From IMG/VR virus record IMGVR_UViG_2648501318_000002, positions 1 through 5,127 of that record: a stretch of DNA of 5,127 bases; one strand, given 5' to 3'. This document shows positions 858-1,214 of this stretch, piece by piece. Below the pieces are notes generated by a model. The model searched no databases. It had not been told where the DNA came from and saw only the letters and a list, made by a program, of their open reading frames with translations. The position numbers and the translations under genes are program-made. Each line of letters begins with the position of its first letter. Within the stretch, counting starts at the first letter, position 1. The stretch comes from a virus (lineage: Duplodnaviria; Heunggongvirae; Uroviricota; Caudoviricetes).

Positions 858-897
858 GAGACTCAAAAAATGGAAAAACCCGCTCGACGGCGGGTTT
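858..897 (-). terminator. Rho-independent terminator on the minus strand, upstream of the holin (tR'-like)
   Basis: Stem CCCGC/GCGGG (879..883 and 890..894) with a 6-nt loop. On the minus strand it is followed by TTTTTCCATTTTTT (revcomp of 858..878). Confidence 0.55.
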
Positions 898-1056
898 AAG
901 CTGTGTGACGAAGTAACCACTCTTAACAGCATAACCAATTTTTTACGTACGTAAACCACAAAATGATATTTGCGAGAATGCTACCGAGTATTGAAAACAC
1001 CACTACAAATACATAAGCAAATCTCAACAAATAACCAGCAAATAATTTCCAGCGTT

Positions 1057-1086
1057 ATTTTTAGCCGATTTAAATTGAACCTTCAA
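1057..1086 (-). promoter_or_regulatory. Candidate sigma70 late promoter (pR'-like) reading toward the holin
   Basis: Minus strand reads TTGAAG, a 17-nt spacer, then TAAAAA(T). The predicted start is about 190 nt upstream of the 858..897 terminator. Pattern match only. Confidence 0.2.
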
Positions 1087-1214
1087 ATTACAGAGCACTT
1101 ATAAATAACAGCCGTTAATATAAATTGGCTAATAGATTTATTTTTATTCAGCCAAGAGCCATGAATAGGATTCGATAGAAAAAAGTTCAGATAAAAATAG
1201 AGATCTACTTCACA

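Follow-up and report, generated by a model that had tools for sequence, protein, structure and literature searches.

Where does the antiterminator Q act when a porin gene, read in the opposite direction, lies between its own gene and the lysis genes? The question is raised by a 5,127-nt stretch of phage DNA (positions 1 to 5,127 of IMG/VR record IMGVR_UViG_2648501318_000002; hereafter the window), which its open reading frames (ORFs) and Pfam matches identify as a lambdoid late region of the DLP12/qsr' type. It is read on the minus strand, so that coordinates fall in the direction of late transcription. A preliminary description of the window had placed a tR'-like terminator in the spacer between the porin and holin genes, and a candidate late promoter about 190 nt further upstream, at 1086-1057. 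We find the terminator where it had been described, and predict the promoter elsewhere. The hairpin probably belongs to a compact, ~90-bp cassette for late-gene control (minus strand, 955-866) that resembles those of 933W, H-19B and DLP12, with a predicted promoter about 25 bases upstream of the hairpin (Table 1). The kind of switch is an ordinary lambdoid late promoter-terminator, placed after an inserted porin gene.

The hairpin reads AAACCCGC-CGTCGA-GCGGGTTT at 897-876 and is followed by TTCCATTTTTT down to 866. Its 8-bp stem, reported by a consensus terminator scan, has a folding free energy (dG) of -11.5 kcal/mol. From the end of the U-run to the holin ATG (752) is 113 nt, and the hairpin scan found no second hairpin with a U-run between 866 and the holin start. 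Taken alone, as a bare pattern, the hairpin is unremarkable, because seven terminator-like sites were found in the window when 4.4 are expected from shuffled sequences, and its fold z-score is -1.8. Its significance comes instead from its conservation in diverged copies and its homology to an annotated terminator. We aligned nine copies of the spacer, from the window, 434B, PA-2, K-12, three other Escherichia coli prophages and the phages Turner and D2; of the 22 hairpin columns, 21 are invariant. The hairpin is homologous to the first terminator after pR' in the Shiga toxin (Stx) phage 933W, annotated there as a 'possible rho-independent terminator', and all cassette variants fold as a hairpin followed by a U-run. 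Taken together, these comparisons support the view that the hairpin acts as a tR'-like terminator ahead of the lysis genes, as had been proposed. At window position 881, in the 3' arm, GCTGG replaces GCGGG in PA-2, Turner and two E. coli prophages, a change that reduces its predicted stability to -5.8 kcal/mol, as against about -12; Turner is viable with this weaker form. An Rfam match to Trp_leader over the hairpin, seen at a permissive threshold, is at chance level (E = 0.96; 20.8 bits, with a cut-off of 41 bits) and was discarded.

The position of the promoter is predicted from a comparison with Stx phages. There, differential RNA sequencing (dRNA-seq) has located the late promoter, and Term-seq the point at which its leader ends; in the Sakai prophage Sp5 the distance between start and end is 257 nt (Sy et al., PMC7547250). 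Counting 257 nt back from the U-run of the tR' hairpin on the Sakai sequence, we placed the Sp5 start on ATAAGAG, 7 nt after TATCAT and just past the stop codon of Q; the coordinates in PMC7547250 are offset by ~142 nt from the current Sakai record, and the placement is good to about ± 2 nt. The window carries the same TAAGAGTGGTTAC, 7 nt after TATGCT. In a sensitive BLAST comparison with the Stx2-II region, the only intergenic DNA common to the window and Stx phages is 956-874 (Stx 3925-4006, 77% identity), and the 933W record annotates pR', the Q-utilisation site (qut) and a terminator on stretches homologous to 955-866. Because 956-874 corresponds to the mapped Stx pR' start and first terminator, we assign the late promoter-terminator to the interval between the porin and the holin and not to the side of Q, in agreement with the preliminary description. 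Its suggestion that the porin (1326-2408) separates Q (2597-2995) from Q's target is likewise supported, with the cassette at 955-866 as the probable target.

The likeness to the Stx phages 933W, H-19B and Sp5, whose pR' region is the source of the small RNA StxS, extends from the PF06530-family Q through the homologous -35 element, the palindromic spacer, the -10 element and TAAGAGTGGTTAC to the first hairpin and its U-run. The differences lie on either side. In the Stx phages the promoter overlaps the last Q codons, whereas the cassette of the window stands 1.64 kb from the Q stop codon, behind the reverse-oriented porin; and the Stx leader runs ~200 nt further, to a second terminator, to give the 258-nt StxS precursor (PMC7547250). 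The homology of the window to the Stx leader stops at the first hairpin, at 874, and no homologue of the StxS part, the 74-nt 3' part of that leader, was found in the window.

Within the cassette the order on the minus strand is TTTACG (955-950), a spacer of 16 nt, TATGCT (933-928), GTTAAGAGTGGTTAC and the hairpin. The -10 hexamer stands in one fixed register in six sequence variants, all of which have A as second and T as sixth base. By homology to the Sp5 start, transcription is predicted to begin at A923-A921, so that the hairpin would begin 25-27 nt into the transcript and the U-run would end 55-58 nt in. The terminated leader predicted from this promoter is ~55 nt long, not ~190 nt as envisaged earlier. 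Downstream of the -10 element, AAGAGTGGTT is invariant in all 10 cassette variants. The region 927-898 may hold a sigma-70 pause element, for which AAGAGT-GG and TACTTC are candidates. The former, which is invariant, shares three of its six bases with the -10 consensus, among them the A in second and the T in sixth place, and resembles the AACGAT-GGG of lambda.

Several records or translations place other features over the same bases. A small hydrophobic ORF overlapping the promoter (TTG at 1026 to TAA at 923) is interrupted by stop codons in K-12 and other copies and was rejected. Short ORFs are drawn across the cassette in several phage records as 'hypothetical protein' (L009 2525-2638, L010 2467-2583, L011 2532-2657 and L015 2557-2670); we treated these as annotation artefacts, because translation would have to begin at a codon in the -10 region, ahead of where the transcript is predicted to start, and because of differences in loop length, which suggest that the reading frame is not kept. 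Of the stretch AGTGGTTACTTCGTCACACAG, at the predicted start of the late leader, only the TCACA half-site resembles the CRP consensus. The PA-2 record (J02580, from 1986) annotates a CRP binding site on this stretch (L002 1730-1750, equivalent to window ~921-901).

Conservation across the nine copies picks out the same interval. The proportion of invariant columns is 87% over the whole spacer, 89/90 in the cassette (955-866) and 62% in 1100-1040, the most variable part of the spacer. The -35 hexamer of the cassette lies inside a perfect 14-bp palindrome (955-942), a pattern that occurs only here in the window, where 0.04 matches would be expected by chance. From its position and its homology to the 933W pR', the palindrome is the likely candidate for the Q-binding element (QBE, or qut).

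The co-variation of this palindrome with the Q protein points the same way. The upstream half of the promoter differs between Q subgroups A, B and C, each having its own type, whilst the transcribed part is nearly constant. Subgroup A, whose Q proteins are 77-100% identical to that of the window, has the palindrome TTTACG(TA/AT)CGTAAA. The Q proteins of Stx phages (933W, Sp5 and Stx1 phages) are 77-81% identical to that of the window, 933W Q being 77%. Subgroup B (99% identical among themselves, 48% to the window Q) has TGCGGTCCGCA, and subgroup C (88% among themselves, 45% to the window Q) has GCGTACGC. A fourth promoter type, that of phiP27, carries a palindrome of its own, GGAATTCC, at the same position. 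Each palindrome is centred at about -27; the chance of a palindrome with 4-bp arms in that interval is ~11% for a random 45-mer of the same composition. Binding of Q inside the promoter has been described for lambda and 82 (PMC4914094), and the subgroup palindromes make a candidate for the pattern expected of a dimeric Q bound in this way.

For the cassette we infer a start site, Q binding, pausing and termination efficiency along the following lines. Host sigma-70 RNA polymerase would start at A923-A921 from TTTACG-16-TATGCT, copy the invariant leader, stop at the hairpin and U-run (897-866) and free an RNA of ~55 nt. Q, made from the early rightward transcript, would bind the palindrome TTTACGTACGTAAA (955-942), probably as a dimer, and join the polymerase paused early in the leader. 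The modified polymerase would then pass the hairpin into the holin, lysozyme and other late genes.

A number of observations weigh against this reading. A sigma-70 weight matrix gives the 955-928 promoter 5.7 bits, a score that shuffled sequence exceeds. Ranking promoters by weight matrix proved non-discriminating in this AT-rich spacer and was set aside. The -10-like TACATT of Stx phages reads TACTTC in the window, a poor sigma-70 pause element. The covariation check found no compensatory changes in the hairpin stem in the aligned register, and covariation was dropped as support for the hairpin, the perfect stem of POCJ13 appearing only in a shifted register; the G-to-T variant at -5.8 kcal/mol is carried by viable phages; and the 258-nt RNA of Stx phages means that the homologous hairpin is read through there, at least partly. 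The rows listed from the K-12 Term-seq supplement (PMC7815308) include neither essD nor nmpC, nor any end at the predicted coordinates. The 12 phages of the Lambda_ev087 clade, whose Q is 85% identical to that of the window, lack the AAGAGTGGTTAC cassette, so Q subgroup alone is no guarantee of the cassette. Finally, the lysis promoter published for DLP12 is placed ~350 nt further upstream and is described as sigma-E dependent.

These points bear on three other placements of the late promoter. In the one put forward in the preliminary description, a sigma-70 promoter at 1086-1057 would produce a ~190-nt, 6S-like leader ending at the hairpin, with qut in 1040-1090. The motif TTGAAG-17-TAAAAA(T) is present as described and, at 7.5 bits, no other sigma-70-like placement in the spacer scores higher; the copies all agree in its -10 part, CTAAAAAT, and a leader of ~190 nt would resemble the 194-nt leader of lambda (PMC4914094). 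As a promoter, however, it does not rise above chance, since shuffled spacers score 8.0 ± 1.5 bits, and it was not listed by the promoter scan of the window. Nor is its -35 element conserved: only one of the six positions is invariant, the other five being changed, and four copies, including those of the viable phages Turner and D2, have TCTTTA or TCGGTG instead. It has no homology to any mapped pR', and the cassettes of other phages have nothing equivalent upstream. A qut site in 1100-1040 is implausible because this is the least conserved stretch of the spacer while the Q proteins of the porin-type phages are nearly identical (~95-99%). A promoter at 1086-1057 is thus very unlikely, and qut is better sought in the palindrome at 955-942. 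A late promoter beside Q, in 2596-2409, with Q-modified polymerase reading antisense through the porin to the lysis genes and 955-866 an inactive relic, would have the merit of the usual pR' position in lambda and Stx phages, and the Lambda_ev087 clade does have a promoter-like stretch and a hairpin directly after Q. Yet on the minus strand of 2596-2409 there is no promoter-like site, no pR' homology and no second copy of the palindrome, and neither the promoter scan nor a pattern search found a promoter-like site or a copy of the cassette between Q and the 3' end of the porin. Strong minus-strand hairpins stand in the way at 2488-2425, and a relic would be neither 99% invariant nor expected to track the Q subgroup across different cargos. 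We regard this placement as extremely improbable.

The third placement is a sigma-E-type promoter close to the porin start. The sigma-E consensus has a GGAACTT-like -35 and a TCAAA- or TCTGA-like -10 element, ~16 nt apart, and the spacer contains GAACTA-16-TCACT, invariant in the nine copies, within ~50 nt of the porin start codon. According to PMC7918800, which cites Rueggeberg et al. (2013, 2015), the DLP12 lysis operon is controlled by a Q-type antiterminator and RpoE; its reporter fragment is given there as -121 to +650, and its primers map to window 1398 and ~628, which puts the +1 of this promoter, essDp, near 1277. As described there, essDp concerns the same locus (the spacer is 99% identical) and the same claim of a Q-dependent lysis promoter between nmpC and essD, but its published +1 precedes our predicted start by ~350 nt and is ascribed to sigma-E. 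On this account essDp would itself be the Q-responsive lysis promoter, the hairpin would lie inside its 525-nt leader and 955-921 would hold no active start. The reporter, however, running from 1398 to ~628, contains the whole 955-866 cassette, and the published Q dependence therefore cannot decide between the two sites. The conservation of GAACTA-16-TCACT can be explained by the control region of the porin itself, which is expected here; phages with other cargo lack the 1308-1277 region and keep the cassette; and known Q proteins load on sigma-70-paused polymerase (PMC4914094). A genomic SELEX (systematic evolution of ligands by exponential enrichment) data set lists no sigma-E holoenzyme peak for essD and does list a sigma-S peak near the nmpC start. 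Full-text literature searches for the leader sequence and for QDLP12/essDp gave nothing relevant. As the sole Q-responsive promoter, essDp seems to us unlikely, with more in its favour than either of the other two placements; promoters at 1277 and at 923-921 could also coexist.

The 955-866 cassette is not confined to porin-carrying phages, for 363 phage records contain this leader together with its hairpin. It stands directly after Q in 933W, PhiR5_1 and Stx2_112808. Elsewhere the two are separated: by one reverse ORF in PhiR55_1, by two such ORFs in vB_EcoS-569R4, by three in Stx1_499 and, in POCJ13, by a DnaD_N-like ORF in forward orientation. The cassette of phiP27 is preceded by a large forward ORF. 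The Q-porin-holin layout of the window is itself widespread, being found in K-12 DLP12 (quuD-nmpC-essD), in phages 434B and PA-2 and in ~36 other phage records. The cargo at the junction thus comprises the porin, several ORFs of unknown kind in reverse orientation and the DnaD_N-like ORF. Placement immediately downstream of Q, which is usual and not mechanistically required, is departed from in the window and in four other phages. We see about an even chance that the ~90 bp running from the -35 hexamer to the U-run form a portable late switch of phages with a PF06530-type Q, in which leader and terminator are shared, the subgroup palindrome selects the Q, and the junction between Q and cassette is a recurrent landing site for cargo, so that Q often acts at a distance of kilobases. 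Were this so, the sigma-E promoter of the K-12 DLP12 lysis genes would be either a second promoter or a mis-assignment.

Two of the phages named above, Stx1_499 (L022 1737-4400) and POCJ13 (L021 141-1400), are Shiga toxin phages, in which the cassette that drives stx is split from Q by three reverse ORFs and one forward ORF, respectively; the detached arrangement thus also occurs directly upstream of toxin genes. Lambda_ev087 (L003 3400-3530) and its 11 relatives have, directly after Q, TTGCTG-17-TAATGT, a strong -10-like TGTTAGAAT and a hairpin like the Stx tR' at the StxS end, and this different leader is followed by a reverse-oriented lipocalin (Blc) gene. A match to CGTAAAAA in Lambda_ev087 lies inside a coding region and was judged to be due to chance.

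In its logic the proposed arrangement resembles the pR'/6S RNA/tR' system of lambda, with a constitutive promoter, a short terminated leader, a Q element between -35 and -10, and loading of Q on a promoter-proximal paused polymerase followed by read-through into S and R (PMC4914094). It differs in that the two Q families are unrelated and there is no sequence similarity, in that the lambda leader is 194 nt long as against the predicted ~55 nt, and in that the promoter of the window is not adjacent to Q. With pR' of phage 82, where the pause is at +25, it shares the general mechanism and a Q-binding element inside the promoter, 82 Q being thought to bind as a dimer (PMC4914094). The 82 transcript, however, begins with AAA, and a near-consensus -10-like element precedes its GCC at +15-17 (PMC5001585). 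The leader of the window lacks these features, and we rejected the label 'phage 82 type' on these grounds.

The conceptual change is small, as the kind of element is already known: it is the standard late promoter and terminator of lambdoid textbooks, and the prophage is the one best studied in E. coli. For DLP12, moreover, there is a published Q-dependent lysis promoter in the porin-holin spacer, placed near 1277. No late promoter is marked in the spacer in the K-12 RefSeq and 434B records, and what the assignment by homology supplies is an exact, testable set of coordinates. The porin-holin spacer is 99% identical to that of DLP12 in E. coli K-12, and 2665 of the 5426 complete E. coli genomes have a match to it; if the reading as a portable cassette is right, about half of complete E. 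coli genomes would carry an unannotated promoter for a terminated RNA of ~55 nt. The assignment would also give a simple sigma-70/Q explanation for the Q dependence of the DLP12 lysis genes, either in place of the published sigma-E promoter or alongside it. Outer-membrane vesicle production and the Hha-induced lysis of cells in biofilms have both been connected with these genes (PMC7918800, PMC2408971). The subgroup palindromes, in turn, offer a hypothesis for the DNA recognition code of a Q family that also controls Shiga toxin expression.

Table 1. Positions in the window of the predicted late-switch elements, of competing promoter-like motifs and of neighbouring features
Feature	Position	Strand	Basis
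-35 hexamer TTTACG	955-950	-	homology to annotated 933W pR'
Perfect 14-bp palindrome TTTACGTACGTAAA, containing -35 TTTACG; candidate Q-binding element	942..955	-	homology to 933W pR'; subgroup palindromes at same position
-10 hexamer TATGCT	928..933	-	same register as Stx-phage TATCAT
Predicted start A923-A921 and initial transcribed region GTTAAGAGTGGTTACTTCGTCACACAGCTT	898..927	-	homology to Sp5 dRNA-seq start; 30/30 columns invariant
Putative promoter-proximal intrinsic terminator	897-876 (stem) and on to 866 (U-rich tail)	-	terminator scan, folding, 933W homology
5' untranslated region of lysis operon	753..865	-	hairpin scan; 93% of columns invariant
Promoter-like motif TTGAAG-17-TAAAAA(T)	1057..1086	-	judged not the late promoter
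Sigma-E-like motif GAACTA-16-TCACT	1308-1282, +1 near 1277 (1277..1308)	-	primer arithmetic; invariant in 9 copies
Lysozyme gene, truncated by IS2	198..537 (also given as 148-537)	-	Pfam Phage_lysozyme, profile positions 3-83/125
Holin gene, phage 21 S type; K-12 EssD	537..752	-	Pfam Phage_holin_2_1, E = 2e-35
Porin gene, nmpC/lc type	1326..2408	+ (opposed to late transcription)	Pfam Porin_1, E = 3e-153
Hairpin, dG -21 kcal/mol, tail TCTTTT	2456-2425	-	hairpin scan
Hairpin	2488-2459	-	hairpin scan
Terminator, GGGGCGTTGCAACGCCCC then T-run	2546-2563	+	hairpin scan
Antiterminator Q gene, PF06530 family	2597..2995	-	Pfam, E = 4e-53
RusA	3203-3565	-	ORF and Pfam
YbcO	3562-3891	-	ORF and Pfam
NinB-like protein	4015-4470	-	ORF and Pfam

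Protein alignment shows the Q of the window to be identical to K-12 QuuD over the 127 amino acids of the latter, whose start corresponds to window 2980. When the Q gene is compared with its counterparts in Stx2-II and Lambda_ev087, the homology ends in both cases at the same base, 2621, 24 nt before the stop codon, which suggests that the last ~8 codons of Q are part of the downstream module and that 2621 is a recurrent recombination junction. The porin beyond it is reverse-oriented cargo (a moron) between Q and the late cassette. In the interval between the two genes, the hairpins of 2425-2563 have conserved stems; in the plus-strand terminator at 2546-2563 the loop reads TTGCAA, TGGAAA or TTGAGA, depending on the copy. 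The hairpin at 2456-2425 could shield the porin from antisense early transcription.

In the 5' untranslated region of the holin, near 800, a segment of 16-17 nt, CTGCTTTT(T)TTGCGATA, is missing from the window, K-12 and 434B and is retained in PA-2, Turner, D2 and three other prophages. At the left edge of the window an end of IS2 occupies 1-197, its terminal repeat ending at 197, and the N-terminus of the IS2 TnpA is encoded at 106-2 on the minus strand; the insertion lies in the lysozyme gene, and the endolysin of this prophage is truncated as a result. Near the right edge an orphan ORF of 49 amino acids, without a Pfam match, lies on the plus strand at 4735-4884, beside a fragment of an IS1 transposase that takes up 4895-5127 (DDE_Tnp_IS1, E = 7e-39).

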